From sequence record PZ871095.1: a stretch of 44,927 nucleotides of DNA; one strand, written 5' to 3'. Origin of the DNA: a phage. Made by a program: the position numbers and the translations under genes. Below are positions 1,970 through 39,966 of the stretch, one piece after another. The notes below the pieces were generated by a model that was not told where the DNA came from, did not search any database, and saw only the letters and a program-made list of their open reading frames with translations. The stretch's first letter is position 1, and every line of letters starts with the position of its first letter.

Positions 1970-3490
1970 ATGACCGTTAACGTTGACAACCAGCACCCGC
2001 TCTATGCGCGCATCGCGCCAGAGTGGAAAATGATCCGTGACTGCGTAGCGGGGGAGCGCGCCGTGAAGGCGTGCGGCCCCTTGTACCTGCCACACCCAGC
2101 AAGCGGCGACACCTCCGACCCGAAATCTCGGGCACGCTATAAGGCATATAAGCAACGTGCTGTCTTCCTGAACGCCACCGCCCGCACACTGAATGCACTG
2201 TTAGGCGTCGCCTTCGCCAAACCGGTGAGTATGGACCTTTCCGGGGCAATGGCTGACCTGATCGAAGACGTAGACGGCAGCGGGATGCCCCTGGCACAAC
2301 TCCTGCGCGGCGCTATGTCGGAAGTGCTGCAATCAGGCCGTGCCGGGTTTATGGTCGACTACGACCGCCAGGCGCATTTTGACGAACTGGGTAACGTAGT
2401 ACCGCAGACCGCCGCTGAAATGGCAGCACACCGCCCGCTTATCCGCCTGTATACGGCTGAACAGATCATTAACTGGCGGCAGACCCACGGCGTCGACACG
2501 CTGATTGTGCTGAAGGAAACGGACGAAATCAGCACCGAAGACCCGGACGACTTCGCAAACCACGAAGTAACGATCTGGACCGAGCTTCGCATGATTGCAG
2601 GTAAGGCCCACGCCCGCCGCTGGTTTTACAACGCTGACACGTCCGAGGTGCAGATGGACTTGCCGCGAGGCTTCACCCGCACCGACCTTGTACCATTGGT
2701 GGATGCCTCCGGTAATGCGCTAACTCAACTGCCATTTTGCTGGTGTGGCGCGGTGGACAACAACGCGACACCGGACGCCGCACCGCTGGCGGATATTGCG
2801 TCCATCAACATTAAGCACTACAACGCCGAAGCGGACGTCGCCGAGATTGCGCACATCGTGGGGCAACCTACCCTCATTGCGACTGGTCTTACCCAATCAT
2901 GGGCGGACAAGAACCTGAAAGGCGGCATCGCGCTCGGGGCAACTAAGGGCGTTATCCTGGGCCAGAACATGGACGCCAAACTGCTTCAGGCGGAGGAGCG
3001 CAACTTGTCGGTTGCACTGTGTGAGCGCCGTGAATTGCAAATGGCTAAACTGGGCGCGGCCCTGGTCGAGAAGGGGACCGCACCTAAGACGGCAACCGAA
3101 GCGGCCTACGATGCGCAGACTGATAACAGTATCCTGTCACTGATTGCCGGTAACGTTGAGAAGGCTTTCAACCGTGCGCTGCAAATCGTCAAGCTGTTCA
3201 CGGGCGACACCGCAGATCAACGCGTAACGCTGAATAAGTTCTACACCGAAATCACGGTTGACGCACAGCTTATGACCGCAATGATGGCGGGTGTGCAGAC
3301 CGGTACGGTCCGTCTGGCGGACTTTATCAAGTGGATGATGGCCCAGGGCGTTATTGATGACTCGCAAACCGTCGAGCAGGTGGAAGACGAACTGCGAAAT
3401 CAGAATCCATTGCCTCAAATGTCCCCGGATGCGGTAGAATCGACCAAAGAAGCCCCGGACGAGGTAGCGGACAATGGCGAAGACAATTAA
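1970..3490 (+). CDS. portal protein
   Basis: 506 aa between terminase and head morphogenesis gene; acidic C-terminus; AAGGAAA ribosome-binding site before the ATG at 1970. Confidence 0.85.
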   Translation: MTVNVDNQHPLYARIAPEWKMIRDCVAGERAVKACGPLYLPHPASGDTSDPKSRARYKAYKQRAVFLNATARTLNALLGVAFAKPVSMDLSGAMADLIEDVDGSGMPLAQLLRGAMSEVLQSGRAGFMVDYDRQAHFDELGNVVPQTAAEMAAHRPLIRLYTAEQIINWRQTHGVDTLIVLKETDEISTEDPDDFANHEVTIWTELRMIAGKAHARRWFYNADTSEVQMDLPRGFTRTDLVPLVDASGNALTQLPFCWCGAVDNNATPDAAPLADIASINIKHYNAEADVAEIAHIVGQPTLIATGLTQSWADKNLKGGIALGATKGVILGQNMDAKLLQAEERNLSVALCERRELQMAKLGAALVEKGTAPKTATEAAYDAQTDNSILSLIAGNVEKAFNRALQIVKLFTGDTADQRVTLNKFYTEITVDAQLMTAMMAGVQTGTVRLADFIKWMMAQGVIDDSQTVEQVEDELRNQNPLPQMSPDAVESTKEAPDEVADNGEDN

Positions 3491-4577
3491 TCAATATATG
3501 GCGGATCGAATGATTCGCCGTCACATCTTCACCCAGCGCCTGAGTAATGACCAGGCGCGGATGGTGTTGGCTATGTGGGAGAAGTTCCGGCCCACGTTAC
3601 TGGGTAAGCTGACCGAGTTGCTTGATGGTAAAAAGTCCATGAGCAACAAGGCGCTTACCACCCTGTTAACGCAACTCGACAAGACCGTCAAAACGGAACT
3701 GCGCACCGAGTTTAAGGTGCTGGCTGAAAGCCTTCAGGAGTTCGCCGACACCGAGGCCGATTATCTCGCCGACACATTAACGGCAGCGATCCAGCCGGTG
3801 GTCGCCGTACCTGCGGTCGAGGTGGTTGGCGTAGTGACCGGCGCGCAGATCGCAGCAACGGCAATGAAAAACCCGTTCCTGGGCAATACCATGATGCAAT
3901 GGCCCGACTCACTTTCTGAGTGGACCAGGACGCAGATCGGTAATCAGGTGCGGGCGGGATTCATCCAGGGCAAGCCAACGATGGAAATTATCGCGGACGT
4001 GAGGCGCGCGCTAGGCGGTCGTAGTGCGCAAGCCATCTCAAGCGTTGTTAAGTCCGCAGTCAACCACTATGCGGCGACCGCCCGCGAACTAATGGTAAAA
4101 GCAAATGACGATATTCTCGAAGGTCGCCAATGGTTATCTACATTGGACACGCATACTTCTCCCATGTGCCAGCTACGCGATCGCCTGTTTTATCCGGTTG
4201 ATGTTACTCCCGACACCAAAGGAAAGCGCGGCGGGAAAGTGGTGGCTGGGTCACAATATGGCGCTGGTCCGGGCAAGTTGCATTATTGCTGCCGCTCGAC
4301 GGAGACGTGGAAAGTCAAAGGTATGGAAGATTGGCCCAGTGGTAAGCGTCCGGCACTGAAGGCCGACGCGGGCAGATTGCTGAGTGAGCAGGTCGACGCG
4401 CAGACGGATTTCTTCTCATGGGTACAGCGCCAGCCGCGCCATATCCTGGAGGAATTATATGGAGTGCAACGCGCCGACCAGATTATGCGCGGCGTGAAAG
4501 TGCCGAAGATGTTTACCGATTCTGGCGAACTGATGACTATCGCACAGCTTAAAAACCGGGGGTTATGGCGTGATTAA
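3474..4577 (+). CDS. head morphogenesis protein (Mu F / SPP1 gp7-like minor head protein)
   Basis: 367 aa overlapping the portal 3' end; conserved-looking WLSTLDTHTSPMCQ segment typical of this family; position after portal. Confidence 0.7.
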   Translation: MAKTINQYMADRMIRRHIFTQRLSNDQARMVLAMWEKFRPTLLGKLTELLDGKKSMSNKALTTLLTQLDKTVKTELRTEFKVLAESLQEFADTEADYLADTLTAAIQPVVAVPAVEVVGVVTGAQIAATAMKNPFLGNTMMQWPDSLSEWTRTQIGNQVRAGFIQGKPTMEIIADVRRALGGRSAQAISSVVKSAVNHYAATARELMVKANDDILEGRQWLSTLDTHTSPMCQLRDRLFYPVDVTPDTKGKRGGKVVAGSQYGAGPGKLHYCCRSTETWKVKGMEDWPSGKRPALKADAGRLLSEQVDAQTDFFSWVQRQPRHILEELYGVQRADQIMRGVKVPKMFTDSGELMTIAQLKNRGLWRD

Positions 4578-4899
4578 ATACGCAGCGATTGGGCTGGTTA
4601 TCGGTCTGGCGGTAGGATTCTGGCTAGGTGACTCCTATCGCGCTGGCGTAGTGGCGGAGGCGGCGCAAGAAGCGCAAGCCAAAGCCCAACGGCAGCAAAC
4701 TAAAGTAATCGAGCGCTCCGTGCAGGCAGAACAAGCCCGCGACGTGGAATACCGGACTATCACAAAAGAGGTTGTTAAATATGTTACGCGCCCTAACCGC
4801 CCTGATTGTAGTTTTGACGCTGAGCGCGTGCGGATCAAGCAGCGTGCCGTTGATGCCGCTAACGGAGTCGGCACTGCGACCGCCGTGCAAGTTCGATAA
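4570..4899 (+). CDS. Rz-like inner-membrane spanin (i-spanin)
   Basis: GTG start; N-terminal transmembrane segment AAIGLVIGLAVGFWLG followed by a charged coiled-coil-like region rich in A/Q/E/R; a lipoprotein ORF is embedded in the +1 frame. Confidence 0.6.
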   Translation: MIKYAAIGLVIGLAVGFWLGDSYRAGVVAEAAQEAQAKAQRQQTKVIERSVQAEQARDVEYRTITKEVVKYVTRPNRPDCSFDAERVRIKQRAVDAANGVGTATAVQVR

Positions 4900-5011
4900 C
4901 CCGTCTGCGGACCCCGACGAAGATTTGATGATTGACGTGAAAAATATGGAATGCGGGGCGAAGCTAAGGGCGCAGGTGCTCGAGTTGCAGCAAATAATTA
5001 AGGGGCCGTAA
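4781..5011 (+). CDS. Rz1-like outer-membrane lipoprotein spanin (o-spanin)
   Basis: Starts inside the i-spanin gene in another frame; lipoprotein signal MLRALTALIVVLTLSAC with lipobox LSAC; proline-rich mature part with extra Cys; AAAGAGG ribosome-binding site before ATG 4781. Confidence 0.65.
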   Translation: MLRALTALIVVLTLSACGSSSVPLMPLTESALRPPCKFDNPSADPDEDLMIDVKNMECGAKLRAQVLELQQIIKGP

Positions 5012-5025
5012 TGGCCCCTTTTTGT
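5001..5025. terminator. hairpin terminator between convergent genes (GGGGCC-gtaat-GGCCCC + TTTTTG)
   Basis: Perfect 6-bp GC stem followed by a T-run on the plus strand; lies between the plus-strand spanin stop and the minus-strand gene ending at 5025. Confidence 0.6.
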
Positions 5026-5789
5026 TAGCGCGGAATGCCGCAAATCTCGTTGAGTGTTTTCACATCCAGCGCCACTGCCGTGGATTTTGGCTTGTCCGGG
5101 TACGGGATGAATTGCTCGACTTCAGGCCATGCCTTAATCAGCTTCTTGTCAGTATTGTGCAGGTCCAGCACACCGGTAACGGTCAACTTGAATGCGTCAT
5201 ACTTCGCACGCAATTCGCGGCGGGCCTGGTCGTTACGGTCCAGGCGCTTACAGAAGTCATGGTCCGCAGGGTAATCTGCGCGACCGCGAGGGAGATATAT
5301 CGGCAGCGCTTTCCCGTCCTCGTCCACTTCGCACACTGACGCGAGCATAACTGTCTCGAACCCCGGAACGATATCGCCGAGATCAGGCGCGAGCTTATTC
5401 ATATATTTCTCTTCCCAGTATCCGCGATGTACGCGGTATCGGCGACCGTCACCGCTCAAGGACAAGGTGCGAACATTTCCGCCTGCGTTGATTTCGAAAG
5501 TGGCGTCGTAAACGCTGCCGATACCTTTCGGGCGGTCGGTGTTATAACTATATGTCGCCTTGTTGGTGTATACACAGACGCCGTACATCTGCGACTGGTC
5601 GTCGCGAATTGCCTTGATATGCTCGCGGAGCGCTGCGAACGTGCGAATGCCTTCCGGCATACAGTCCAGCGTTATTGCGTACGCCAGATCGCGTGAGTCC
5701 ATCATGATTTGTTTGGCTTCGGTTGCGATTTCGTGGTCGCGCAGGATGTTAGATAGGATCTGATTTTTAATGTCTTTTGTCAGTCTCAT
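5025..5789 (-). CDS. hypothetical protein (minus-strand gene inside the head module)
   Basis: 254-aa ORF with ATG start and GAGGA ribosome-binding site; opposite strand to the flanking structural genes; no motif recognised. Confidence 0.7.
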   Translation of the reverse strand: MRLTKDIKNQILSNILRDHEIATEAKQIMMDSRDLAYAITLDCMPEGIRTFAALREHIKAIRDDQSQMYGVCVYTNKATYSYNTDRPKGIGSVYDATFEINAGGNVRTLSLSGDGRRYRVHRGYWEEKYMNKLAPDLGDIVPGFETVMLASVCEVDEDGKALPIYLPRGRADYPADHDFCKRLDRNDQARRELRAKYDAFKLTVTGVLDLHNTDKKLIKAWPEVEQFIPYPDKPKSTAVALDVKTLNEICGIPR

Positions 5790-5828
5790 TTTTGTGTCCT
5801 CATTATTGGGGCTTTCGCCCCGATTGGT

Positions 5829-6143
5829 TTAGTTAAATTTGATGTTGCCGCCGGTTGAGGTTAAGCGAGCACATACAGATTCAACGGCATCGACGCACAT
5901 GAAATCGTTAAAGGCTTCGACCAGGGCGTTTATGAATGATGCCGGAACCAGGCCGCAAGCCGGATTATCGAATATCGCGGAGTTGATCGCCGCTTTTGCC
6001 GCTTCGGAAGCATTCATGCTCTGGCACAGATTCAGCGCTTCCGCGTTACGCATTGCGTGAAAGGTAAAGGTATTCGCTACGGTAGCTTTATTGAAACGGG
6101 CCATTGCGGCGTCTACTGGAGTTGCTACGGTCATGTTAGTCAT
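5829..6143 (-). CDS. hypothetical small Cys-containing protein (minus-strand gene)
   Basis: 104 aa from ATG (MTNMTVATP) with AAGGAAA ribosome-binding site; four Cys; co-oriented with 5025..5789. Confidence 0.6.
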   Translation of the reverse strand: MTNMTVATPVDAAMARFNKATVANTFTFHAMRNAEALNLCQSMNASEAAKAAINSAIFDNPACGLVPASFINALVEAFNDFMCVDAVESVCARLTSTGGNIKFN

Positions 6144-6178
6144 TTTGTTTTCCTTCATATCTCTGTTGGTGTGCAACC

Positions 6179-6208
6179 AATATAATGCAACCAACATACG
6201 CAATGCAA
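6179..6208 (-). promoter_or_regulatory. putative sigma70-type promoter for the minus-strand gene pair (TTGCAT-N18-TATATT)
   Basis: Minus-strand reading cgcTTGCATtgcgtatgTTGGTTGCATTATATTGGTTGCAC; contains two copies of the recurring TTGGTTGCA motif; about 30 nt upstream of the ATG at 6143. Confidence 0.4.
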
Positions 6209-6298: not shown

Positions 6299-7000
6299 AT
6301 GAAACTTACTAAAGCAGAATATGACGCGTTGCCGGAAGGTATGAAGGCGCTTTTTGTTGCCGATGGCGACGGGTATAAATCAACTTTCATGACCGCAGAA
6401 GAAGTACAGGCGGAAATCAAGGGTCTGAAAGACAACAACGCGAAGCTGGTGAGCGAGAAGAAAGCAGAAGCTGAACGCCGCGCCGAAGCTGAGCGCCTTG
6501 CGAAAGAGAAAGAGGAAGCCGCCGCGCGCAAAAATGGCGACCTCGAAGCGATCGACAAGTCCTGGAAAGATAAGTTTGCGAAACACGAAGCAGACACAGC
6601 GGGAAAAATCGAAGCCTACCGCAAGCAGATCCACGATCTAACCATCGGCAGCGCTGCCAAAGACCTGGCATCGAAGCTATTCGGTAAGAATGCCGGCATC
6701 ATGCAACGCCACGTAATGGACCGTCTGACGCTGGAAGACGGCGAAGACGGCAGCTTGAAAGTGCGTGTCTTGCAGGATGGCAAACCGTCCGCGCTGACTA
6801 TGGAAGAGTTAGAAAAAGAGTTCCGTAATAACGCCGATTTTGCATCCGTCCTGGCTGGCACGCCAGCCGGTGGCGCGCCTAGCAAACCGACGCAGGTTGT
6901 CGAAGATGTGAAGTCTAAAATTACGATGGGCCATAGCTTCGGTATCACCGATCTCACCAAACAGGCCGGTGAAATCATCGCTAAAATGGGTGACGAGTAA
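6299..7000 (+). CDS. putative scaffolding protein
   Basis: 233 aa immediately upstream of the major capsid gene; long charged K/E/A-rich helical-looking stretch; ATG 6299 with AGGGGGA ribosome-binding site. Confidence 0.65.
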   Translation: MKLTKAEYDALPEGMKALFVADGDGYKSTFMTAEEVQAEIKGLKDNNAKLVSEKKAEAERRAEAERLAKEKEEAAARKNGDLEAIDKSWKDKFAKHEADTAGKIEAYRKQIHDLTIGSAAKDLASKLFGKNAGIMQRHVMDRLTLEDGEDGSLKVRVLQDGKPSALTMEELEKEFRNNADFASVLAGTPAGGAPSKPTQVVEDVKSKITMGHSFGITDLTKQAGEIIAKMGDE

Positions 7001-7097: not shown

Positions 7098-8198
7098 ATG
7101 TCTTTAACAGTGTTCCAGCGTAAACTCGTTACCGCGGTTACGCAAATGATCCCCGACAACCTGAACGTATTCAACGCTGCCGCCAATGGCGCTGTTGTTC
7201 TCGGTACTGGTGAAGTGCTGAAGGATGTTATTGAGAAAATGTCCGTAGGCTTGATCGCCAACCTCGTTACCGACCGTAACGCCTACGCCCCTGTCGGCAC
7301 TCCGGCAACCGCGAAAGTGCTGGCGCGTATGCTGACCAACTCGGTTAACCTTTCCGCAAAAGTGGGTCCGGTAGCAATTACGAAGGCCATGATGGCTAAA
7401 ATCGAAACCAACGTTAACAGCGTTGCGGCTGAGATTGCGGCGCAGGCTACTCAAGCGATTATGCTGCACTACCTGAAAGCGGGTATCGGCGCAAGTAAAG
7501 CGGCGATCGAAAGCAACGCAGCGGCAAAATACACCCAACCGGCGCGCGTTGACGGCGTTGGCGGTCGTACCTTCCCGACCCTGGCAGACTTCCCGCTGGC
7601 GGCTTCTAAGTTCGGCGATCAGGCGTCTTTGATTAAGTCCTGGTTTATGGACGGCGTTACCTGGGCAAACTTCATTGCGTACCAGGCACTCCCTTCCGCT
7701 GAACAGGTATTCGCAATTGGCGATCTCCAGGTAATGGGCGATGGCCTGGGCCGTCGCTTCATTATCTCCGATGCCGCTGCCGATGCTATGGGTGCGGGCA
7801 ACATGCTGGGTCTGGTCCCTGGCGCGGTTGCAGTTACCACCAACGGCCTCGATATGCTGGCGCAGGAAAAAGGCGGTAACGAGAACATCGAGCGCTGGTG
7901 GCAGGGCGAGTTTGACTTCAACGTGGCTGTTAAAGGCTACCGTCTGAAGGCGTCCGCTCGTACCCCGATCGAAGGCGTTCGCTCGTTCAAACTGTCCGAC
8001 ATCACCACTTCCGCTAACTGGGAACTGGATCAGGGCCAGGTAGACAACGCACCGGCAACCGTTCAGGATGTTGGCGCTGTGGGTGATGGCGATACTAAAG
8101 GCCGTCGTAAGACCCAGGCAGCACAGGCAGTGCCGACCCGTCACATCAAGGAAACCGCAGGCGTACTGGTTAAGCTGACGGCGACTACCGCGTCTTAA
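7098..8198 (+). CDS. major capsid protein
   Basis: 366 aa after the scaffold; A/G/V-rich capsid-like composition; followed by a strong terminator; AAGGA ribosome-binding site. Confidence 0.85.
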   Translation: MSLTVFQRKLVTAVTQMIPDNLNVFNAAANGAVVLGTGEVLKDVIEKMSVGLIANLVTDRNAYAPVGTPATAKVLARMLTNSVNLSAKVGPVAITKAMMAKIETNVNSVAAEIAAQATQAIMLHYLKAGIGASKAAIESNAAAKYTQPARVDGVGGRTFPTLADFPLAASKFGDQASLIKSWFMDGVTWANFIAYQALPSAEQVFAIGDLQVMGDGLGRRFIISDAAADAMGAGNMLGLVPGAVAVTTNGLDMLAQEKGGNENIERWWQGEFDFNVAVKGYRLKASARTPIEGVRSFKLSDITTSANWELDQGQVDNAPATVQDVGAVGDGDTKGRRKTQAAQAVPTRHIKETAGVLVKLTATTAS

Positions 8199-21977: not shown

Positions 21978-22000
21978 AGGCCCCGAAAGGGGCCTATTTG
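21978..22000. terminator. hairpin terminator between convergent genes (AGGCCCC-gaaa-GGGGCCT)
   Basis: 7-bp GC stem between the plus-strand gene ending 21974 and the minus-strand gene ending 21994; T-runs are weak on both strands. Confidence 0.5.
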
Positions 22001-22212
22001 CAGGTTGTGCTTTTGAAATGGTCAACTGACACATACTGGAAGTTAAACGGGTATCCCGCCCTGAGCATTTTGTGGCCGCTAAAATCCGCGACCCCAAACA
22101 CGGGGACTGAGTAATCCATGCCGCTATTCTGGTACGTCGCGTCGCAGACTTTAGCTGGCATGTTGGCACAACCGGACAAAAGAACTGCACAAATCATAAT
22201 TAAAGTTTTCAT
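21994..22212 (-). CDS. small outer-membrane lipoprotein (Cor-like superinfection-exclusion candidate)
   Basis: 72 aa from ATG 22212 (AGGGGATGA ribosome-binding site); lipoprotein signal MKTLIMICAVLLSGC with lipobox LLSGC; sole minus-strand gene among tail genes. Confidence 0.55.
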   Translation of the reverse strand: MKTLIMICAVLLSGCANMPAKVCDATYQNSGMDYSVPVFGVADFSGHKMLRAGYPFNFQYVSVDHFKSTTCK

Positions 22213-22292
22213 GGTATCATCCCCTATATTTGGTTGAGTTTTAGTATTACACCGCTCAACCAGGATTGCAACCAATTTATGAGGATTTAGCT

Positions 22293-25246: not shown

Positions 25247-25309
25247 AGTATTACCCTTTTTAGTGAGGGGGCTGTATTGCCCCGACGAGTTAACTATAAT
25301 GCAACCAAC

Positions 25310-25780
25310 CTATTGGTTGCAAGTGAATTTTGCAACGTTTATTGCGTAAATTTTCGGAACCAAATCACCACACGCCCGACGAATTGCCGCGATGTTCTTC
25401 TCGCAATCTTCAATGATGACCAGTTCCGACACGTCTGCGTAGCAGACCATTTTGAATACAGCGCACGCCTTAAACTCTGGCGGCGGGGTGTCGTCCAGCA
25501 TGTGGCGCATAAACAACCGGCCGTTCGGGAAGACCTCCAATTGCTCGGCGGTGGTGTCCCAACATTCTCGCTGCCGGTTGGTCAGATACGCGATCTCGAA
25601 GCCTTGCTCTTTATACATGCGCAGTAGCGGCAGCATATCCATGTTAAGGTCTTCGCGGACATGCGCCTTGTGCCACTTCGCCCAAAAGGTGGATTTAGTT
25701 TTTATGCCCGGCACCAAGTCGGCACGCGCATCACTTGAACCGTTAATAACGCCATCCAAATCGCAAATCAGTAATTTCAT
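25310..25780 (-). CDS. HAD-superfamily hydrolase (putative nucleotidase/phosphatase)
   Basis: 156 aa; N-terminal LLICDLDGVI matches HAD motif I (DxDG); ATG start. Confidence 0.65.
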   Translation of the reverse strand: MKLLICDLDGVINGSSDARADLVPGIKTKSTFWAKWHKAHVREDLNMDMLPLLRMYKEQGFEIAYLTNRQRECWDTTAEQLEVFPNGRLFMRHMLDDTPPPEFKACAVFKMVCYADVSELVIIEDCEKNIAAIRRACGDLVPKIYAINVAKFTCNQ

Positions 25781-26001: not shown

Positions 26002-26467
26002 GGAGTTCTCCTTCGCTCATTATTTCAATTTGTGCGCTGCCGATGGGTGGCGCTTCGTCAAAGATTATCAGTTGCTGGCACTTATTATTGCTAGGCCCGA
26101 CTTCACCGGTTACAGCGTGTATAAATCTAATCCGCCAGTCCAGAAGAATTATCAGGTTTGCAGTCTTCCGGGCCAGCTTCGCCCACTTCGTCGACGTGTC
26201 CTGATTCAGTAGCATGACAGTACGGCGTCCGTGCGCTGCGCACTCGACCCACGGCAGCGGATCGGAATACGGCGGATTGCACCACTTCCACCCTTTCAAC
26301 TCGGACCAGTCCACATCAAGCGCGCTGTGTTCCGCCGTGAAGTAACGCGGGAGCAGGTGGTTTGCATCGCTTGCCGCCATATCGTAACGGAATCGGTATT
26401 TCCGACGAAGCGGTTTAAATAAAGCTGGCGGCGTGCGCCAGCCATCCTTCTGCTCACTCTTCTGCAT
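25982..26467 (-). CDS. DNA N6-adenine methyltransferase (phage Dam-type)
   Basis: 161 aa with catalytic NPPY motif (WCNPPYS) typical of N6-adenine methyltransferases; ATG start. Confidence 0.8.
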   Translation of the reverse strand: MQKSEQKDGWRTPPALFKPLRRKYRFRYDMAASDANHLLPRYFTAEHSALDVDWSELKGWKWCNPPYSDPLPWVECAAHGRRTVMLLNQDTSTKWAKLARKTANLIILLDWRIRFIHAVTGEVGPSNNKCQQLIIFDEAPPIGSAQIEIMSEGELLEYLNR

Positions 26468-26912
26468 GATCTGGATCTATCGCATACAAGGCAATTTTCT
26501 CACCACTGTTTAGAACGCGTTGCAGGCGCTTTGCTCCATCGTCGCTGAGCCGTCGGCAATCGGAGTAGTAGCTACCGTTTTTGCGCCACGCCATAAGCAC
26601 CAGGTCTTTACGGTCGATCTTCGTTGTGCGACCTTTTGGGCGCACGTACTCCTCGGCACGTTTGCAATGCTCGCGCAAACCTTCGGCAGTGATGCGGTTT
26701 AGTGCAACGCTGGTTGTGTATCCGGTGCGCTGCATAATCCCCATCAATTCGAAAAGCAGTTCGAAGCGCTCCTCTAATTCCTTGCGCATCTTCTCCTCGC
26801 CTTCATAGCTTGCCAGGTAGGTATCCGCCAGCGCGTTCGCCCGTTCGGCTTGCTCTCGGGCTTCGAGGCATTGCGCGGCCCAGTAATTTTTCTCTTCTTG
26901 TAAAATTTTCAT
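26454..26912 (-). CDS. hypothetical protein
   Basis: 152 aa, ATG start, overlaps the Dam start; charged helical N-terminus, basic C-terminal half. Confidence 0.55.
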   Translation of the reverse strand: MKILQEEKNYWAAQCLEAREQAERANALADTYLASYEGEEKMRKELEERFELLFELMGIMQRTGYTTSVALNRITAEGLREHCKRAEEYVRPKGRTTKIDRKDLVLMAWRKNGSYYSDCRRLSDDGAKRLQRVLNSGEKIALYAIDPDHAEE

Positions 26913-26959: not shown

Positions 26960-26988
26960 AATATAATGCAACCAATCTAATTATGCAA
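26960..26988 (-). promoter_or_regulatory. putative sigma70-type promoter (TTGCAT-N17-TATATT) with TTGGTTGCA motif
   Basis: Minus-strand reading aTTGGTTGCATaattagaTTGGTTGCATTATATTgaggg, about 45 nt upstream of the ATG at 26912. Confidence 0.4.
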
Positions 26989-26993
26989 CCAAT

Positions 26994-27317: not shown

Positions 27318-28009
27318 TTTAAATTTTCCTCATTGACCGCTATCGCGAAGCCGCGCGGGGTGAGCGACCGGATTAATTTTGTGCGGGCTGATTTGCCTCC
27401 GAGGCGACTATACTGCTTCGAGTACCCTTTTTCAACGAAAACAGGTTTCTTCTCTGGCATACGGAAGCCGTTACCGGTCCATAAGCAGGTCAGCTTCGGA
27501 TATGAATCGCGGGCGTTGATGTATTCCGGGAAGAGCGGGTGTACGTCATCCTCCGGCAGATATCCCCCATACTCCCACGGGTCGAATGAGTGGTCCGGCT
27601 TACGCCACTGGGTGGAAAGCACACTGCGCGGATTCTCAATCATATATGGCACTTCGAAGAAGTCACCCAGGTAAGCGGCGATCTTCGCGGTGCGCACCGC
27701 CTTAAGCTGAAAGGCTGGGTCTTTTGCACGCTTGCGCGGGAAAGCTGGCGCACCGCTCACTGCCAGATCCGTGCACGGAGGAAACGCATAGATGATATCT
27801 GGCGTACCGAAATCGCCATTCATCGCACGGTCTACAAAGTCCAGATCGATAAACTCATTGCGATAGCGGATTCCGCGACCATAAATCCGGTAGTCAAGGT
27901 AAGACCCGTGATCGGCTTCGGAGTAGTTGAAGCAATAACACTTATGCCCCATCTCGGCAGCACGCTCAATCATCAAACCGCTGCCGTCAAACAATGACCA
28001 GATTATCAT
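27314..28009 (-). CDS. compact C5-cytosine methyltransferase-like protein
   Basis: 231 aa with motif I-like LFDGSG, motif IV-like FPPCTDLAVSG (catalytic PC) and motif VI-like ENP; far shorter than typical C5 methyltransferases; coupled to neighbours by ATGA overlaps. Confidence 0.55.
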   Translation of the reverse strand: MIIWSLFDGSGLMIERAAEMGHKCYCFNYSEADHGSYLDYRIYGRGIRYRNEFIDLDFVDRAMNGDFGTPDIIYAFPPCTDLAVSGAPAFPRKRAKDPAFQLKAVRTAKIAAYLGDFFEVPYMIENPRSVLSTQWRKPDHSFDPWEYGGYLPEDDVHPLFPEYINARDSYPKLTCLWTGNGFRMPEKKPVFVEKGYSKQYSRLGGKSARTKLIRSLTPRGFAIAVNEENLK

Positions 28010-29430
28010 TTGCGCGCCTTTTTAGCTTTCATGTATTCCATCAAGTCGTCCTGTATATCTCGCTTACTGTCGCGACGCTCGGCGACCAATTCGTCCAATG
28101 TCCCGCGAGCCTGGATAATGTAGACGAATACCGGTCGAGGGTGTCCGGCCTGCATCTGGCGAACCGGCCCGATACGTTCAACGATCTGCGAAAAGTGCTC
28201 AAAGTTCCAGGTATCGGAGAATATTGCCAGGTGATGTCCGCCGTCCTGCAAGTTAAGGCCGTGGCCCGCCGATGCCGGGTGTGCAAACATGATGGGGATC
28301 TCGCCCCTGTTCCACGCTTCCATATCCTTATTGCCCTGCTTACCTTTACCCAACGCAACGCCGTGCGGAAATTTCTTCTTAAGACGTGCCAGGTCATGCT
28401 TATACTGATACGCAACGAGCAACGGCGCGCCGTTCAACTCCTCCACGATACTTTCCAGTGCGTCCAGCTTCGCGTCGTGAATCTTCACCCACTCGTCGGT
28501 CCGTTCGCCGTCTTCGTCCACCTTATACACAGCGCCGGAAGCAAGCTGAAGGCACTTAATTGTCTTCGATGCCGCGTTCGCCGCTTCCACTGTTCCGCTT
28601 TCCAGTTCGGCAAATAGCTCGCTTTCAAACTGGTCGTAGATCTTGCGGGCTTTCTTCGGCAGGTCCACAACAACCGGCGTATAGATTGGCTTGTCGCATC
28701 CGAAGTATTCAGCCGCGTCAACGGTTAGTGATACGTCAGACAGGCGTTGTTGTATTTCTTTCTCGGAGTTCTTTAGCGGGGCGTGCTGCATCGTGAAGCT
28801 GCCAGGCTTAACAGGCTTGCTAATGAACCAGCGATCGGTGAATGCCTTATAGCTACTGCCGAGGCGTTCGCCACCGTCGACAAACCACGTCTGACCCCAT
28901 AAGTCTTTTAGCCCGTTTGGCGCTGGTGTGCCGGTAAGGTTAATCCAGCGCTTGACGTGTTTATGTGCAATCGCTGCCAGTGCGCGGGCGCGCTTGCTCC
29001 CCTGCTTGCTACGATAGCCTTTCAGCTTAGTCGATTCATCGGCAACAACGACCGTAAAGGGCCACGCATCGCCGTAATAGTCGACCAGCCACTCAACCAC
29101 ATCGTAGTTAACACAAACCACGTTAGCGTCGCTCTCAAGCGCCGCAATACGGTCCTTCTCCGGCCCGGTGCCGTCTACGACCAGCAGGGATGAGAATCGC
29201 CATTTCTCCTGTTCCGGGGGCCATGTACCCGACGCAACACGCAGCGGGGCCAGCACCAGTACGCGGTCCTCATGATGGGACAGGACGCCAGTCTGGAACA
29301 TTTTATTCAGCGCCCACATTGTCGCGCCGGTTTTACCCGACCCCATTGTCGCCCAGATATTACATCGCTTATGCTTGAGGATGAACGCGGTTATCAACTT
29401 CTGATATTCGCGGCGTCGGAATCGTGCCAT
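28006..29430 (-). CDS. SNF2/DEAD-like superfamily 2 helicase
   Basis: Walker A GSGKTG, DExx-like VVADEST and conserved helicase C-terminal motifs; start placed at ATG 29430 (MARFRRREYQ) rather than the upstream alternative at 29520. Confidence 0.85.
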   Translation of the reverse strand: MARFRRREYQKLITAFILKHKRCNIWATMGSGKTGATMWALNKMFQTGVLSHHEDRVLVLAPLRVASGTWPPEQEKWRFSSLLVVDGTGPEKDRIAALESDANVVCVNYDVVEWLVDYYGDAWPFTVVVADESTKLKGYRSKQGSKRARALAAIAHKHVKRWINLTGTPAPNGLKDLWGQTWFVDGGERLGSSYKAFTDRWFISKPVKPGSFTMQHAPLKNSEKEIQQRLSDVSLTVDAAEYFGCDKPIYTPVVVDLPKKARKIYDQFESELFAELESGTVEAANAASKTIKCLQLASGAVYKVDEDGERTDEWVKIHDAKLDALESIVEELNGAPLLVAYQYKHDLARLKKKFPHGVALGKGKQGNKDMEAWNRGEIPIMFAHPASAGHGLNLQDGGHHLAIFSDTWNFEHFSQIVERIGPVRQMQAGHPRPVFVYIIQARGTLDELVAERRDSKRDIQDDLMEYMKAKKARK

Positions 29431-29434
29431 TTCT

Positions 29435-29653
29435 TTATTCCGCCTTTTTCCAGACTTCGGTTTCACTGTTCCAGTTCCTTTTTGTAGCGTCGTAGTTGGT
29501 GGCGTGTCCGATGTGCACACCGGTAGCCCGGAAGCTCTTAAATTTTTGCCAGCACACCGTCAACGGCAGCGGATCATTCATGCCCGCGATAAACCATACG
29601 CGATCGCCCGGTTTACATTCGCCCAGCTTGGTTAGTCGGTAATGTTCTTTCAT
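29435..29653 (-). CDS. small hypothetical protein
   Basis: 72 aa from ATG 29653 preceded by GGGAGA; stop lies 5 nt upstream of the helicase start. Confidence 0.4.
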   Translation of the reverse strand: MKEHYRLTKLGECKPGDRVWFIAGMNDPLPLTVCWQKFKSFRATGVHIGHATNYDATKRNWNSETEVWKKAE

Positions 29654-29910: not shown

Positions 29911-30189
29911 CTATGCGACCAATTCAGCAACCAATAAATCGCAGTCGGATATGTTGTCGATAACGCGAACGTCAGCACCGCGGCGGGCCATCCGTTCATG
30001 TTCGCGTACCTGGTGCGGCTTCGGTTTTCCACCGGGGCGCTTCACTTCGACGAACACTATTTTGCCGTTGATGATAATAATCAGGTCGGGCGCACCTGCG
30101 CGCCCCTCCCATGCCAGTTTTCGGCAGAATCCGCCGACCTCTTTCACCCGTTTCATCAGGTGACTTTGAATCTTGCCTTCTGGTGTCAT
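29911..30189 (-). CDS. VRR-NUC domain nuclease
   Basis: 92 aa with PDLIII...VFVEVK arrangement (PD-(D/E)xK core) typical of VRR-NUC proteins. Confidence 0.7.
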   Translation of the reverse strand: MTPEGKIQSHLMKRVKEVGGFCRKLAWEGRAGAPDLIIIINGKIVFVEVKRPGGKPKPHQVREHERMARRGADVRVIDNISDCDLLVAELVA

Positions 30190-30381: not shown

Positions 30382-32673
30382 TTACTTCCTGTACCTGTAC
30401 ATAATGTCGCCTTCTGCGGCGAGTGGGAAGCCTTTCGCCCAAACTGGCAGGTCGCACATCAGCGCGCATAGCTCCTCGGTCGTGTAGTCGTCAGTATCCG
30501 GCACTTCTGTGATCAATTCGTCGTGTACTGACAGGACGATTTCATAGCCCGCGGCTTCAACGCCGGGCATGGACCATGCGAGAATATCGCGACACAACGC
30601 CTGTACGATGTTCTCCGTAAGTTTGCCGCCGTAGGTATACTGGAATCCCCACTGGCGCGTCGTCTGATTCTCGCCCTGATATTTAATGTGTGTGCTGGTG
30701 CGCTTCTTGCCGGTGTCTTCATCAATCTCGGTAGTGACAGACAGCGCGATGCCGGGGTAGCTCATGATGCGCCCCGACGGCAACTCAATTTTCAACCACC
30801 ACCCCGCGGCGTCCGGGTCGTCGCGCTCCTCGTCGAAGGTTGGGTCGTGCTTCGCCTTCGTGCGCACAATCTTGAGCGCTTTTCTACCGTCCGGGCGAAC
30901 GTTCGCGCCAGCCCAGTATGCTTTACCCGGATTGCGGATTGCACACAACACCGCGTCCTCAAGCTCGGCCCAAAAGGCTACCGTCTTCGGGTGAGCCTCA
31001 CGCCACATGCGTTTGATCGCGTCACAGGTAAGCCATACGTTTTTCGGCAGTATGTATGTTGGGCGCTCGTCCTTCTTGCCCGGCTTCGGCGGGCGCTTCG
31101 CTTCGTTAATGCGAGCGTACTCATAACCACGTTTCGCCGCCGCCCAAATGTGGTCCGGGAACGTGCCTTTCATCACGTCCGCCATAGTGTAAAGGTCGAG
31201 TCCCAGGTTTTTAGCGAACTGCAAGAACGCCGCGACGCCGCCACCATAGCCCAGTCCCAATTCGCACGCCTTACCAATCTGGCGTAAGTCCTTGCGGTTG
31301 GCTTTAATGTAATCCGGGTCAAGGCCGAACATCTTACCGGCAGTCTCACAATAGATATCGCGACCGGCCTTAAACACCATTAGCGCGGTTTTCTCGCCAG
31401 CAATCCAGGCAAGGCCGCGCCCTTCCACGTTGGAGTAGTCCGCTACGACAAACTTCTTGCCCTTCGCCGGAATAATGCACCCGCGAACGGTCGAGGCCGT
31501 TAGCTTCGATATGTCATACGCCCAGTGTGCGGTCCCGCGTAACAGGGAGTTGATGCCGTTGGTGAGCATGTGCGACCGGACCCAAAACGAGACGTCGCTT
31601 TCACCCTCGCGGCGTTTAATCTTCCCTTCGTGGTCGTCGCTGTACTCGCCACGCGCCAGGTTTTGAGGTTGAAAGCCTTTACCGGCCCAGCGTAGCGTGC
31701 GCTTTGCCCCACCATACTGAAGACAACCACGGCGGCGACCATCGGCAGACAGGCCATTGACGAGCGGATTGTATTTAGTAGATGCGGTTGATGACGCACC
31801 GAGGCGCATTTCGATCAGCGCTTTGCCCTCGTCCGGGAAGTCCGGGTCTTCCAGTAGGTCGTTTAGCGTGGATTTCTGCGCGTTGTGGATTGTGAACGCC
31901 GGGGCGATATCACGCAGGATTGGCAGGAAGTCATTGCCTGTCAGTTTACCGCCAAATCGCTCCCAGGCTTCCTCCTTCAATTCTTCCTTATGCGCCTGCA
32001 CCGCTTTGATCGCGGCGTTCGCCAGGTCAACGTCCACATAGAAGCCGCGGTCGTTGATCAACTGGTCGATAAGCAGGATTTCATCTTCCTTCGGAGTATT
32101 ACCCCAGTCCGGTATGCGCCAGTAGACCTCACGCATCGCGATAATATCCAGCGCGGCATATCGCAGAAATTTGGCCCATTCTTCAGGGTGAGTCTCGCGA
32201 GTGTAGCGGCGGATTTTGTAAGTCTTAGGGGTCGGCTTACAGAATCGTTTGATCAGCGCCTTGCCTGCCTTATCCTTCGCGTGCTCTGCGTCAACGCCCA
32301 GCACCTGGCACTGCATATCGAGGCTACCGGGCAGCGCGTGGCGAAAGGCCATAATCATGGTGTCTTCGATCTGGCTTACCGGCAGGTCAATACCCCACTT
32401 CTCGCGAATAACCAGGCGGTCAAACAGTAGGCCGTTAGCCATCACGATTTTTGCTTTCTTGCGGGATACATGGCGGAGCGCTTTGCGCAGTTCACGCGGC
32501 ATTGTGGGGGATTCAGTGCAATCCCATGTCTGCACGCGGCCCTCGTCGATGGCGTATGTGCAAATCATAATCTCGGTGGTTGGGTGCTCTGCGTAGGCGT
32601 ACGCCCCTACTTTCTTCAGGTCCACCCCGCTAAATGTCTCGGTATCGAGAAACAGGCGTTCGAAGTCTTTCAT
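30382..32673 (-). CDS. DNA polymerase I-like (family A) with N-terminal 3'-5' exonuclease region
   Basis: 763 aa; exonuclease-like N-terminus (LFLDTETFSG), motif A-like ADYSNVEGR and motif C SVHDELITEV characteristic of family A polymerases. Confidence 0.9.
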   Translation of the reverse strand: MKDFERLFLDTETFSGVDLKKVGAYAYAEHPTTEIMICTYAIDEGRVQTWDCTESPTMPRELRKALRHVSRKKAKIVMANGLLFDRLVIREKWGIDLPVSQIEDTMIMAFRHALPGSLDMQCQVLGVDAEHAKDKAGKALIKRFCKPTPKTYKIRRYTRETHPEEWAKFLRYAALDIIAMREVYWRIPDWGNTPKEDEILLIDQLINDRGFYVDVDLANAAIKAVQAHKEELKEEAWERFGGKLTGNDFLPILRDIAPAFTIHNAQKSTLNDLLEDPDFPDEGKALIEMRLGASSTASTKYNPLVNGLSADGRRRGCLQYGGAKRTLRWAGKGFQPQNLARGEYSDDHEGKIKRREGESDVSFWVRSHMLTNGINSLLRGTAHWAYDISKLTASTVRGCIIPAKGKKFVVADYSNVEGRGLAWIAGEKTALMVFKAGRDIYCETAGKMFGLDPDYIKANRKDLRQIGKACELGLGYGGGVAAFLQFAKNLGLDLYTMADVMKGTFPDHIWAAAKRGYEYARINEAKRPPKPGKKDERPTYILPKNVWLTCDAIKRMWREAHPKTVAFWAELEDAVLCAIRNPGKAYWAGANVRPDGRKALKIVRTKAKHDPTFDEERDDPDAAGWWLKIELPSGRIMSYPGIALSVTTEIDEDTGKKRTSTHIKYQGENQTTRQWGFQYTYGGKLTENIVQALCRDILAWSMPGVEAAGYEIVLSVHDELITEVPDTDDYTTEELCALMCDLPVWAKGFPLAAEGDIMYRYRK

Positions 32674-32898: not shown

Positions 32899-33683
32899 TT
32901 AACGGCGGCGACGTTTACGTGGTGCTTCGTCTTCGTCGTCTTCGTCCTCATCTTCGTCATCGCGGGACTTGCGGCGTTTGCGAGGTTTTTCATCTTCCTC
33001 ATCATCGTCGTCATCGCGGCGCTTGGACTTTTTGGACTTGCGCGGCTTGTCATCTTCATCATCGTCATCACGACGTTTTGACTTCTTAGCCTTGCGCGGT
33101 GCTTCGTCTTCGTCGTCGTTGTCCAGGTCTTCATCGGAGCAAGAAGACCCGCCACCGCCGAAGGCTTCACCGTCATCACGGAAGCGTAAACCCAGCAAGC
33201 CAGCACCGAGTCCCTTGCCGTTGGTGTTGTTCCACGCCCAAATATCAAGTGACACGTTGCAATAACAACCGGAGTAGATCTCCTGGCCTTCAATCTCGTC
33301 GCCGTCGATGGTCAGACCTTGTTCAGTCTGCTTCTCGCCGAGTGACGTTTGAATGATTGGCTGTTTGAACGATTTAGCGTTGATGTACAACATGCCTTCG
33401 AATTCTTCGGTTACTTCGTCGCGCTCGTCACCGTCGCGAACTGCGCATTCCTTAGAATCCTGGGCGTAGTGGCGGTCCATCCACTTATCGGCATTCTTCT
33501 CGGATTTCAGCTTATCGGTGAGCACTGCGCGCGCTGCCGCTTCCACTTTGTCCACCTGCGGATCTTCTTTATCCAGAAGAATCACGGCACGGTATGCCGG
33601 TTTTTGTCCATCCTGTTTAGGGGTATCACGTTCCCAAATTTTCAGGAAGCATACGCGCACATTTTTCAGGTTGACTTTAGCCA
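32899..33683 (-). CDS. SSB-like protein (DUF2815 family) with repetitive charged C-terminal tail
   Basis: N-terminus MAKVNLKNVRV typical of DUF2815; start placed at ATG 33683 after GAGGA; C-terminus carries three repeats of an acidic run followed by PRK(A/S)KKSKRR. Confidence 0.7.
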
Positions 33684-33995
33684 TTTTCCAATTCCTCATT
33701 TTCACATGTATCGGGGTTATTGTGAGCCACCCCGTCCGGCTTGGTTGCTAATCTACTTGGTTGCGCCTGAGCGGTCAAGCATTTTCATTAAAAAGATTTC
33801 TGGTAACGTAGTCGGTAGCGTTCTCGATCCAGCTTAATGGCGGGCGGTCGATATTCTTCGCCACCCAATCGGCGGCAGCTTCGCTATAACCGTCATCCAG
33901 CCAGCGGGTCGGATGCCGAATCATCCACGCCATGCACACAATGCAGGATAAAGCCCAGCGCGCCGATAACAAACATCAATAATATTGCGAATACT

Positions 33996-36625: not shown

Positions 36626-36654
36626 ATATTAGATTGGTTGCAGAAGGGAGTCAA
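36626..36654 (-). promoter_or_regulatory. putative leftward early promoter (TTGACT-N17-TAATAT)
   Basis: Minus-strand reading TTGACTcccttctgcaaccaatcTAATAT; near-consensus sigma70 hexamers with 17-nt spacer containing GCAACCAA; heads the leftward gene block. Confidence 0.5.
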
Positions 36655-36827: not shown

Positions 36828-37157
36828 ATGAATGTAAACGACGCAATCGAAATGTTAACGAAGACTGTTTGCAGTGAGACAAGCCGGTCATGGGCATACA
36901 CCGATGCCGTGGGGGCTGTGTTATTTGAAATCGAACGACTGCGGCTTACCGAAAAAGAATTGCGCGCCAGGCTGGAACTACTCAACGGTACAGCAGCAAG
37001 CAAGCTGCAAAAGCACAATGAAGAAATGGAAGAATACAAAAAGCAGGTTATCCGTTTGCGCGACGAAGGGAAATCATGGGCGATGATTGCCGAGTTGACC
37101 GGAATTAATCAGAGCACAGTGCGCTCCTGGGTACGCAATAATAAAACTTCTAAGTAA
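36828..37157 (+). CDS. putative HTH DNA-binding regulator
   Basis: 109 aa; C-terminal KSWAMIAELTGINQSTVRSWV resembles a helix-turn-helix; first rightward gene of the divergent control region; GAGGG ribosome-binding site. Confidence 0.6.
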   Translation: MNVNDAIEMLTKTVCSETSRSWAYTDAVGAVLFEIERLRLTEKELRARLELLNGTAASKLQKHNEEMEEYKKQVIRLRDEGKSWAMIAELTGINQSTVRSWVRNNKTSK

Positions 37158-39938: not shown

Positions 39939-39966
39939 GGTTGCACACCAACATGAGGACTGAACA

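Follow-up and report, generated by a model that had tools for sequence, protein, structure and literature searches.

Organisation of the locus

The window, the whole 44,927-nt stretch of DNA that was analysed (PZ871095.1), is the complete genome of an E. coli phage of the genus Dhillonvirus. Between its spanin genes and its scaffold gene lies a predicted minus-strand transcription unit, which comprises a promoter, a 104-aa ORF, a hairpin, a 254-aa ORF and a terminator. The coordinates of both minus-strand ORFs, 5025..5789 and 5829..6143, were confirmed. As the original prediction stated, they run opposite to all their neighbours: the head morphogenesis gene (3474-4577), the Rz/Rz1 spanin genes (4570-5011), the scaffold gene (6299-7000) and the major capsid protein gene (7098-8198) are all on the plus strand.

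The 254-aa ORF (5025..5789) is nmad5. It starts with ATG and was matched by the HMMs of Pfam PF18757 and phrog_1965. Its ribosome-binding site, GAGGA (5797..5801, minus strand), lies 7 nt before the ATG and is conserved regardless of the upstream content. The 104-aa ORF (5829..6143), hereafter the cargo ORF, also starts with ATG and belongs to phrog_24635 (E 2.5e-67), with a Shine-Dalgarno sequence AAGGAA (6150..6155, minus strand) 6 nt upstream of the start. Alternative starts are an ATG at 6158, which gives the 109-aa form of RefSeq relatives, and a TTG at 6203, to which the mechanical ORF extends. Homologues of the 104-aa protein, ~52-66% identical, occur in unrelated phages that have almost no DNA similarity to the window. 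The full-family HMM matches and the homologues in DNA-dissimilar phages indicate that both ORFs are real genes.

A bidirectional intrinsic-terminator hairpin separates the convergent Rz1 (plus strand) and nmad5 (minus strand) genes. A bounding terminator had been predicted at 5001-5025; the hairpin is present, with its position at 5000-5020. The stem is 8-9 bp. The plus strand, on which a T-run follows, folds with -20.5 kcal/mol (z -4.4) and the minus strand with -15.9 kcal/mol (z -3.1). As a terminator the hairpin is stronger in the plus direction, in which the stem is followed by TTTTTGTT. In HK578 the corresponding hairpin carries a terminator annotation for both strands. A second stem-loop, GGGGC-GAAA-GCCCC (5805..5824, minus strand; -11.5 kcal/mol, z -2.9), lies between the two ORFs and has no U-tract. 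This GAAA-tetraloop stem-loop is the conserved 3' boundary for three unrelated cargo ORFs.

The predicted promoter of the unit (6172..6208, minus strand) has a -35 element TTGCAT at 6208-6203 and a -10 element TATATT at 6184-6179. The promoter-like region originally proposed at 6179-6208 was not called by a generic consensus scan, and promoter-like sites in the region were no commoner than in shuffled sequences. Support came from comparison instead: TTGCAT/A, a spacer and TATATT are kept in six Dhillonviruses that bear different cargo in place of the 104-aa ORF. The spacer is 18 nt in the window compared with 17 nt in SM_S22. The promoter and its timing are predictions from sequence conservation; it is probably of the sigma-70 type and used by the host RNA polymerase.

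Two boxes of the 9-mer TTGGTTGCA (6194-6186 and 6180-6172, minus strand) flank the -10 element. The window contains 11 exact copies of this 9-mer, compared with 0.55 expected. Elsewhere, copies border -10 elements in front of the SSB gene, the anti-Tmn/Dam operon, the Lar-like/helicase operon, the cor-like gene, the rightward small-gene operon and the divergent early region. A 21-nt block of the unit's promoter recurs unchanged in the promoter region at 39934-39954. We regard TTGGTTGCA as a putative operator box used throughout the phage, DNA-metabolism promoters included; a literature search for the 9-mer returned nothing relevant. Candidates for its regulator are a 109-aa HTH protein (36828-37157) and other small early proteins.

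With its opposite strand, its own terminator and its own conserved promoter, as predicted from sequence, the unit appears to be transcribed independently of the head genes, as originally proposed. Our main reading, with a probability of roughly 60%, is that both ORFs would form one leftward, independently transcribed accessory locus within the rightward head operon of Dhillonvirus.

An exchangeable slot upstream of nmad5

The locus had been described as a two-gene insertion. This is literally true only of the 104-aa gene, which interrupts the nmad5 leader as a precise indel and is present in ~61/157 relatives; nmad5 is the resident gene of the locus in ~147/157. Five states of the slot were found: a 104-aa ORF, a 170-aa ORF, a 135-140-aa ORF, a 53-aa ORF and an empty slot. 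In SM_S22 the slot is empty, and the same promoter is joined directly to the nmad5 ribosome-binding site. EP23, Zar3M/HK578 and EK99P-1 have unrelated ORFs of 170, 135-140 and 53 aa, respectively, between the same flanks. EP23 keeps the last codons of the 104-aa gene, and the cargo leader, including MKENK, is common to the window and the unrelated HK578 gp06 cassette. The gene nmad5 can itself be missing. In HK578 it is cleanly deleted and its first five codons are fused straight to the terminator hairpin, and in Teewinot only a remnant is left. The DNA around the locus is ~90-98% identical among phages that differ in slot state.

The locus is polymorphic among close relatives and appears to be dispensable, and the presence/absence and replacement polymorphism among collinear genomes is that of a moron or accessory locus. 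The empty and refilled slots, together with the genomes of HK578 and Teewinot that no longer have nmad5, show that the two genes are not obligately paired. The 104-aa gene would be one of four or more cargo genes that can replace each other.

The window locus resembles morons such as the cor superinfection-exclusion gene of tail modules in that both lie on the opposite strand of a late operon or have their own terminator and promoter (in the window a predicted one), appear dispensable, and show presence/absence and cassette polymorphism among relatives. A TTGGTTGCA box, as in the unit, also lies upstream of the window's own cor-like gene (21994-22212, minus strand). Classic morons, however, are prophage genes expressed from the prophage, whereas Dhillonviruses are lytic, and the resident nmad5 resembles a relocated core-module gene rather than foreign moron cargo. 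A protein search of plasmids with the 104-aa protein and a blastn search of complete E. coli genomes with both genes gave no match, and so provided no evidence for prophage or plasmid copies.

The locus is of an early accessory type, moderately interesting and largely known already; its type is familiar, and a link between nmad5 and Tmn was published before. Since nmad5 is published and the small gene sits in a swappable slot, we consider the locus useful yet fairly ordinary. The slot, with its fixed flanks and at least five states, offers a natural experiment in which small proteins that modulate the host or its defences can be sought. It is also a ready landing pad to engineer therapeutic Dhillonviruses.

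Nmad5 and its genomic neighbourhoods

Neither protein had been thought to show an assignable motif. This was wrong for the 254-aa protein, which is a full-length Pfam Nmad5: it scored 204.6 bits against a cut-off of 27 (E 2e-60), and residues 1-253 aligned to profile positions 1-206 of 206. The family was reportedly named in Iyer et al. 2013. The signature that we tested consists of an N-terminal RLT..I..I..N, then WPE, and a C-terminal LN..G.P; L217, W221, P222, L246, N247, G251 and P253 are all present. Among 49 diverse Nmad5 members only L217, W221, L246 and N247 are invariant, and no set of conserved acids, bases or nucleophiles was found. Position 216, which adjoins L217, W221 and P222, is K or R in most members, and the window's Nmad5 has the wild-type K216.

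PDB sequence searches with the family profiles of both proteins gave chance matches only (E 0.67 and E 1), and PADLOC and NCBIfam HMM searches with both proteins found no family at E <= 0.01. A Foldseek search of BFVD with the Nmad5 model returned only other Nmad5 family members. The model, which is of low confidence at residues 83-94, 116-131 and 233-241, matched no known fold. A literature search for PF18757 returned nothing relevant.

We examined 77 Nmad5 loci in other phages and prophages, a biased sample in that it was retrieved with the peptide pattern WPEA[AK]ELL from a subfamily alignment and contains many related prophages. Just downstream of Nmad5 comes PolA in 43 of the 77; on the upstream side, an Enc34-type SSB is next to it in 33, and DUF2800 is found in 36. 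This context covers 12-13 of 24 Nmad5 groups at 70% identity, and about half of the Nmad5 lineages do not adjoin PolA, SSB or DUF2800. Representatives of the remaining loci are lambdoid-like, with the order CI ... Nmad5 ... SSB (e.g. mEp235). The window has the same DUF2800/SSB/PolA/SNF2 module (DUF2800 nuclease 33996-35426, SSB 32899-33705, PolA 30382-32673) on the same strand as nmad5, but nmad5 is not inside it. The family is usually at home in one of two settings, a DUF2800/Enc34-SSB/PolA replication module, as in temperate and metagenomic phages, or a lambdoid early-left operon (mEp235_037), whereas in the window nmad5 is part of a separate unit in the head block.

These arrangements suggest that in Dhillonvirus nmad5 was displaced from the replication/recombination module into the head region. 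The relocated gene would have kept the strand of the replication genes and the promoter type common to the DNA-metabolism and accessory operons. Given this strand and this promoter type, nmad5 is probably expressed with the DNA-metabolism and accessory genes and not with the head genes.

Tmn escape and the role of the locus

Yamashita et al. 2025 reported that K216E in nmad5 escapes Tmn defence (PMC11846954). In their work an nmad5 deletion was viable and the phage was still Tmn-sensitive, so that only the point mutant escapes; wild-type nmad5 was toxic to clone, with SM_S22 as the source of the toxic clone (PMC11846954). The viable deletion and the natural deletions in relatives are consistent with nmad5 being non-essential. 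Their genes SM_A8 CDS7 and SM_S22 CDS6 are the same gene at the same locus as the window's nmad5. SM_A8 Nmad5 is 88% identical to the window's over all 254 aa and has the same K216, and in both phages the gene is flanked as in the window, by spanin genes and a terminator on one side and the scaffold gene on the other. The 104-aa cargo ORF is present in the window and SM_A8 and absent in SM_S22.

In SM_S22 a 334-aa form of Nmad5 is annotated, which is probably an over-extended start running through the promoter; with that start corrected, K296E is the same change as K216E. We rejected the 80-residue N-terminal extension as real, as it overlaps the conserved promoter and the region upstream of the scaffold gene, and the conserved ribosome-binding site and ATG fit the 254-aa start instead.

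Among phage loci, only nmad5 has been reported to give rise to mutants of these Dhillonviruses that escape Tmn, which gives it its interest for the mechanism and trigger of this defence. The host-interaction or anti-defence role suggested originally is supported in part: a change in nmad5 escapes Tmn, but nmad5 is not a demonstrated anti-defence gene, and for the 104-aa protein no function was found. The latter is most likely an early accessory protein that modulates the host or its defences, and not a partner of Nmad5.

For Nmad5 we tentatively propose, as a possibility that falls short of an even chance, a role without catalysis: it would bind to, or serve as an adaptor for, the replication/recombination machinery or its DNA intermediates and so govern Tmn firing. 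Nmad5 would act through the motif of a basic residue followed by L, W, P and E (K216-E223) and through the C-terminal LN..G.P motif. By shaping replication or recombination intermediates, it would decide whether the membrane KAP NTPase Tmn fires. This non-enzymatic reading rests on negative findings, the lack of invariant catalytic-type residues and of a fold match. The fuller version is slightly more doubtful: Nmad5 would be misnamed and be a non-catalytic SSB-Nmad5-PolA adaptor whose K216/WPE surface controls the signal that activates Tmn, and its gene would have moved to a TTGGTTGCA-governed hot-spot that swaps anti-defence cargo such as the 104-aa protein.

It is also conceivable, though unlikely, that the 104-aa protein is a dedicated anti-defence inhibitor, that nmad5 is a passive neighbour and that the Tmn link is incidental. 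The family is patchily distributed and horizontally mobile, occurring in four or more phage groups and in every case amid small genes of the early or accessory kind, and cassette exchange at the slot is typical of counter-defence loci. Members of phrog_24635 in Pantoea phage AAM37 (gp50) and in the Ackermannviridae ZQ1 and SW16-7 are about 52-64% identical to the window protein over the whole length, and the core FDNPACGLVP..F..AL..AF.DFM.VD.V..C.RL is invariant between them. Their genes lie among early or DNA-metabolism genes with no Nmad5 nearby, unlike in the window. Moreover, an anti-Tmn homologue, a separate gene of the window at 26454-26912, has a promoter of the same type. However, the 104-aa protein is not related to the known anti-Tmn protein (BLASTP against the SM_S22 ORF35 family gave no alignment at E <= 100). 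It resembled no characterised protein in searches of Pfam, PDB, PADLOC, NCBIfam and BFVD. Its structure was modelled at low confidence (pLDDT 56), and a BFVD search with the model recovered nothing but the homologue in Pantoea phage AAM37; because the model is poor and the match is to its own family, we draw no fold from it.

Two ideas about this protein were set aside. Its four Cys were confirmed, but only C63 and C91 are invariant and there is no CxxC, which argues against a Cys metal site or a Cys-His-Asp triad; the predicted structure is moreover all-alpha, at low confidence. A match to Mis12 (E 0.13) was rejected as chance.

That Nmad5 is a DNA base-modifying enzyme acting on Dhillonvirus DNA, with Tmn sensing or being affected by the modification, we consider improbable. 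It is suggested by the name of the family, originally given through guilt by association, and the Tmn paper adopts this reading (PMC11846954). In the Pseudomonas phages YuA, M6 and SN1, Nmad5 lies inside a thymidine hypermodification cluster (the M6/YuA/ViI type of system), next to a 5-hmdU kinase, an aGPT-Pplase and a dUMP hydroxymethylase, and these proteins (gp15 in YuA) share with the window the N-terminal RLT..I..I and the C-terminal T.K(K/R)L.E.WPE ... LN..GLP motifs. The Dhillonvirus form differs from theirs by a ~50-aa insertion in mid-protein, and its gene, unlike theirs, is at least 25 kb from the DNA-metabolism genes with no hmdU-pathway gene alongside. Nmad5 is all that the window has in common with the YuA cluster: tblastn with YuA gp11-gp14 and gp17 gave no match in the window at E <= 1, and the hmdU-pathway genes (hydroxymethylase, kinase, aGPT-Pplase, rSAM and PLP enzyme) were absent from the window and from the 77 other Nmad5 loci. 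The only modification genes of the window are Dam-type methyltransferases ~20 kb from nmad5. In M6 the 5-NedU pathway was rebuilt in vitro from gp54, gp51, gp53 and gp52, in a paper that does not mention Nmad5. The four invariant residues of the 49 members do not form a catalytic-type set. Furthermore, Dhillonviruses are still sensitive to restriction-modification systems (PMC11990801), and Tmn sensitivity was unchanged by the nmad5 deletion (PMC11846954).

The two genes are adjacent, co-oriented and served by one promoter, and nmad5 is toxic if cloned alone (PMC11846954), as might be expected if a toxic Nmad5 and a small antidote or specificity subunit had been acquired as one cassette. Such a functional pair is very unlikely. 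Most Dhillonviruses, including SM_S22, have nmad5 without the 104-aa gene; others have unrelated ORFs in the slot, and HK578 retains a cargo ORF with nmad5 gone. Beyond the genus, the 104-aa family occurs without a nearby Nmad5 in AAM37, in the Ackermannviridae and in two metagenomic phages. Each gene is widespread without the other, unlike the obligate co-occurrence of a toxin-antitoxin-like system.

A head-assembly or virion role (for example, as an internal, ejection or decoration protein) is suggested only by where the two genes lie, with head morphogenesis on one side and scaffold on the other, and is highly improbable: searches for homology to structural or assembly proteins, which would have spoken against the original prediction, found no similarity to such families, the unit has the opposite strand with its own predicted promoter and terminator, other phages have the homologues in their replication or early regions, and natural loss in HK578 and Teewinot is matched by a viable engineered deletion.

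The leftward unit and its exchangeable slot

The phage is a siphophage of Escherichia coli and belongs to the genus Dhillonvirus (HK578/SSL-2009a type); the window covers its complete genome. Region 4500-6700 matches more than 100 records of this genus at 94-98% identity, and the gene order is the same throughout as in the SSL-2009a RefSeq annotation. Two minus-strand ORFs, nmad5 (254 aa, 5025..5789) and an upstream 104-aa ORF (5829..6143), were found where the original prediction had placed them. Both run opposite to the surrounding terminase, portal, head morphogenesis (3474-4577), Rz/Rz1 spanin (overlapping, 4570-4899 and 4772-5011) and scaffold (6299-7000) genes, and to the major capsid protein gene that follows scaffold, all on the plus strand. 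The locus is a polymorphic leftward unit, probably autonomous and dispensable, in which nmad5 is resident and the upstream ORF is swappable. Independently transcribed accessory genes within late operons are a familiar kind already.

As predicted, a strong hairpin lies beside the end of nmad5, between the convergent Rz1 and 254-aa genes; its position is 5000-5020 and not 5001-5025. It folds well on both strands and would serve the plus strand better as a terminator (-20.5 kcal/mol, z -4.4, against -15.9 kcal/mol, z -3.1, on the minus strand). A second hairpin between the two ORFs (5805-5824, GGGGC-GAAA-GCCCC, -11.5 kcal/mol) has no U-tract. Speculatively, it may stabilise the upstream message or cut read-through into the toxic nmad5. 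The strong terminator closes off the Rz/Rz1 genes (4570-5011, plus strand), which lie within the head gene block. Synteny with SSL-2009a places holin and endolysin at about 41.7-42.8 kb, so the lysis genes form a split cassette. Beyond the Rz/Rz1 terminator, scaffold and capsid probably require a promoter of their own.

When the window was aligned with the Dhillonvirus SM_S22, the promoter region was identical up to ...CACCAACA. At that point SM_S22 fuses the promoter region directly to the nmad5 ribosome-binding site (GAGGACACA...ATG), leaving the slot empty, and the window carries ~370 bp extra, consisting of the 104-aa ORF and the hairpin. Between the same flanks we found a 170-aa ORF in Shigella phage EP23 (EP23p08, L090:1056-1568), a 135-140-aa ORF in Zar3M and HK578, and a 53-aa ORF in EK99P-1; the slot is also empty in GeorgBuechner, Gluttony and many others. 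The alternative ORFs compared are unrelated to one another. The last codons of the 104-aa gene survive downstream of the EP23 ORF. EP23p08 resembles the central domain of the beta-clamp at a sub-threshold level (Pfam E 7e-4, phrog_947 E 9e-9) and may represent a sliding-clamp-like fragment. HK578 has lost nmad5 itself through a clean deletion that joins the first five codons of the gene to the terminator hairpin, and only a remnant persists in Teewinot. Since slots can lack the 104-aa gene and these two phages have lost nmad5, the two genes do not form an obligate pair: nmad5 is resident, and the 104-aa gene is one interchangeable cargo. This cassette-exchange anatomy and the independence of the two genes are new in the searchable literature.

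The 104-aa protein belongs to phrog_24635, which has no assigned function, and its gene is present in only about 61-64 of about 157 Dhillonvirus records. Homologues with 52-64% identity occur in unrelated phages, namely Pantoea phage AAM37 (Dibbivirus), Ackermannviridae (ZQ1, SW16-7) and two metagenomic phages, each time among early or DNA-metabolism genes and with Nmad5 absent nearby. One of these metagenomic homologues is on a 47-kb myovirus-like contig, where genes for an adenylosuccinate-synthetase-like protein and an HD phosphohydrolase adjoin PolA (L088:3344-5287), a set reminiscent of the 2-aminoadenine (Z-base) genome pathway. The family shares the invariant core FDNPACGLVP..F..AL..AF.DFM.VD.V..C.RL, and only two of the four cysteines are invariant. 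Searches of Pfam, NCBIfam, PADLOC and PDB returned no relative, and the protein is unrelated to the published anti-Tmn protein. Its AlphaFold model is all-alpha, and we draw no fold conclusion because confidence is low (pLDDT 56). Judged from distribution and context, its most likely role is that of an early accessory protein modulating the host or its defences.

A probable promoter and a putative regulon

The promoter proposed at 6179-6208 (TTGCAT-N18-TATATT) is conserved by comparison; a generic promoter scan of the window made no call there, because the -35 hexamer matches the consensus at only 3/6 positions. Two copies of a 9-mer box, TTGGTTGCA, stand on either side of its -10 hexamer (6172-6194), and both are kept in all six Dhillonviruses compared at the locus. 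The box has 11 exact copies in the window (0.55 +/- 0.66 expected), and 25 copies when one mismatch is allowed (11.9 expected). Further boxes are at 22267-22275, 25300-25321, 26967-26992, 29914-29934, 33741-33765, 36634-36642, 39445-39542, 39906-39945 and 43285-43316. Almost all copies are intergenic, mostly as pairs around a -10-like hexamer and in either orientation; the pair at 25300-25321 forms a palindrome. Sites precede the SSB gene, an operon starting with an anti-Tmn homologue and Dam, a Lar-like/helicase operon and a rightward small-gene operon at 39.9 kb. They are also found at the divergent early region near 36.6 kb and upstream of a minus-strand cor-like lipoprotein gene. The nmad5 promoter and the 39.9 kb promoter share an identical 21-nt block, TATATTGGTTGCACACCAACA.

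The arrangement of the TTGGTTGCA copies suggests an operator at which a regulator encoded by the phage would control early, DNA-metabolism and accessory promoters. A candidate for this regulator is a 109-aa HTH protein (36828-37157, plus strand) with an HTH_23/sigma-70 region-4-like domain, whose gene heads the rightward early operon and is annotated as a "transposase" in relatives. Because the TTGGTTGCA-box promoter is common to them, we infer that the nmad5 unit would be regulated together with genes for DNA metabolism and accessory functions rather than with the head genes. This putative regulon is likewise new in the searchable literature.

Nmad5: enzyme or binding protein

No motif had been assigned to the 254-aa protein in the original prediction. 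This was wrong, since over its full length the protein belongs to Pfam PF18757, "nucleotide modification associated domain 5" (Nmad5; E 2.3e-60, 204.6 bits where the cut-off is 27); it also matches phrog_1965. Full-length nmad5 is present in about 147 phage records, essentially all Dhillonvirus. The gene, the family and the Tmn phenotype are already published. The defence protein Tmn is a membrane KAP-family NTPase, and mutants of the Dhillonviruses SM_A8 and SM_S22 that escape it on Tmn-expressing cells carry Nmad5 K216E (Yamashita et al. 2025, PMC11846954). Reverting K216E restored sensitivity and introducing it conferred escape, whereas deletion of nmad5 was tolerated yet left Tmn sensitivity unaltered; wild-type nmad5 could not be cloned owing to toxicity (PMC11846954). 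The window protein shares 88% identity with SM_A8 Nmad5, and its residue 216 is the wild-type K.

In GenBank the SM_S22 protein (CDS0006, L003:1261-2265) is annotated as 334 aa, with a start 80 codons upstream of the 254-aa start, and K216E is therefore numbered K296E in that annotation (PMC11846954). We rejected the 80-residue extension as a real part of the protein: it crosses the conserved promoter and overlaps the annotated 5' end of the scaffold CDS. A conserved GAGGA ribosome-binding site and ATG agree with the 254-aa start; the longer form most likely reflects a mistake in annotation.

The name Nmad5 suggests a DNA-modifying enzyme, and it rests on gene neighbourhood in phages like YuA and M6, where the gene sits in a thymidine hypermodification cluster. 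Several results weaken this explanation. Among 49 diverse members only L217, W221, L246 and N247 are invariant and G104, P222, P229 and G251 nearly so, with no conserved set of catalytic-type residues. The M6 5-NedU pathway was rebuilt in vitro from gp54, gp51, gp53 and gp52, in a paper that never mentions Nmad5. The window shares no other gene of the YuA cluster, and its sole DNA-modification genes are Dam-type methyltransferases ~20 kb from nmad5. Restriction-modification systems still act on Dhillonviruses (PMC11990801), and the unaltered Tmn sensitivity of the deletion mutants also speaks against an enzyme.

We examined 77 loci with Nmad5 genes (six metagenomic and 71 viral contigs), clustering neighbour ORFs and annotating recurrent clusters. 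Because the viral loci were fetched by a peptide pattern of one subfamily, and many of them are related prophages, the fractions are no more than indicative. The commonest order was DUF2800 PD-(D/E)XK nuclease, Enc34-type SSB, Nmad5 and family-A DNA polymerase, with VapE or AAA_25 primase-helicases and an SNF2 helicase on the flanks. In this biased sample PolA was just downstream in 43/77 loci, SSB just upstream in 33/77 and DUF2800 upstream in 36/77; at least one of the three lay within 6 kb in 13 of 24 groups formed at 70% identity. Representative loci of the rest had the lambdoid-type order CI repressor ... Nmad5 ... SSB, as in mEp235, whose early-left operon has the gene after N and Nun. 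No hmdU-pathway gene was found in any of the 77 loci. The window encodes this replication module too, on the minus strand (DUF2800 33996-35426, SSB 32899-33705, PolA 30382-32673, SNF2 28006-29520), which lacks nmad5. We infer that Dhillonvirus nmad5 was displaced from a replication or early context into the head region, still on the replication-gene strand. The SSB-Nmad5-PolA context and the case against an enzymatic role are new in the searchable literature.

Our preferred reading, to which we give roughly one chance in three, is that Nmad5 has no catalytic role and works as a binding or adaptor protein, with the replication/recombination machinery or its DNA intermediates as the target. Position 216, through which nmad5 decides the outcome of Tmn defence (PMC11846954), carries K or R in most members and falls within the most conserved motif, beside L217, W221 and P222. 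In the model, a conserved C-terminal LN..G.P helix follows a low-confidence linker that is probably flexible, an arrangement that would suit a partner-binding peptide. Toxicity in E. coli could then reflect interference with host DNA transactions, and Nmad5 might regulate or sequester the real Tmn trigger. Since charge reversal escapes Tmn and full deletion does not, a regulator or sequesterer fits; Nmad5 as the trigger itself or as the writer of a DNA mark fits less well.

Additional loci

A 152-aa protein (26454-26912, minus strand), annotated as "DNA ligase" in databases, is 79% identical to SM_S22 CDS0035. CDS0035 lies between the Dam and HNH genes and is absent from SM_A8, and is therefore the published anti-Tmn ORF35. 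The window phage thus combines wild-type Nmad5 K216 with an anti-Tmn homologue. The rightward tail module contains the cor-like lipoprotein gene (21994-22212, minus strand), which has a TTGGTTGCA box immediately upstream; in this second accessory unit on the opposite strand, the design of the nmad5 locus recurs. Right after the primase-helicase gene come two 41-nt repeats, separated by 54 bp, together with three TTGGTTGCC boxes, and then three AG(T/A)AAGCGGGAC 12-mers; these repeats (39421-39551 and 39588-39637) may be an origin or iteron region.
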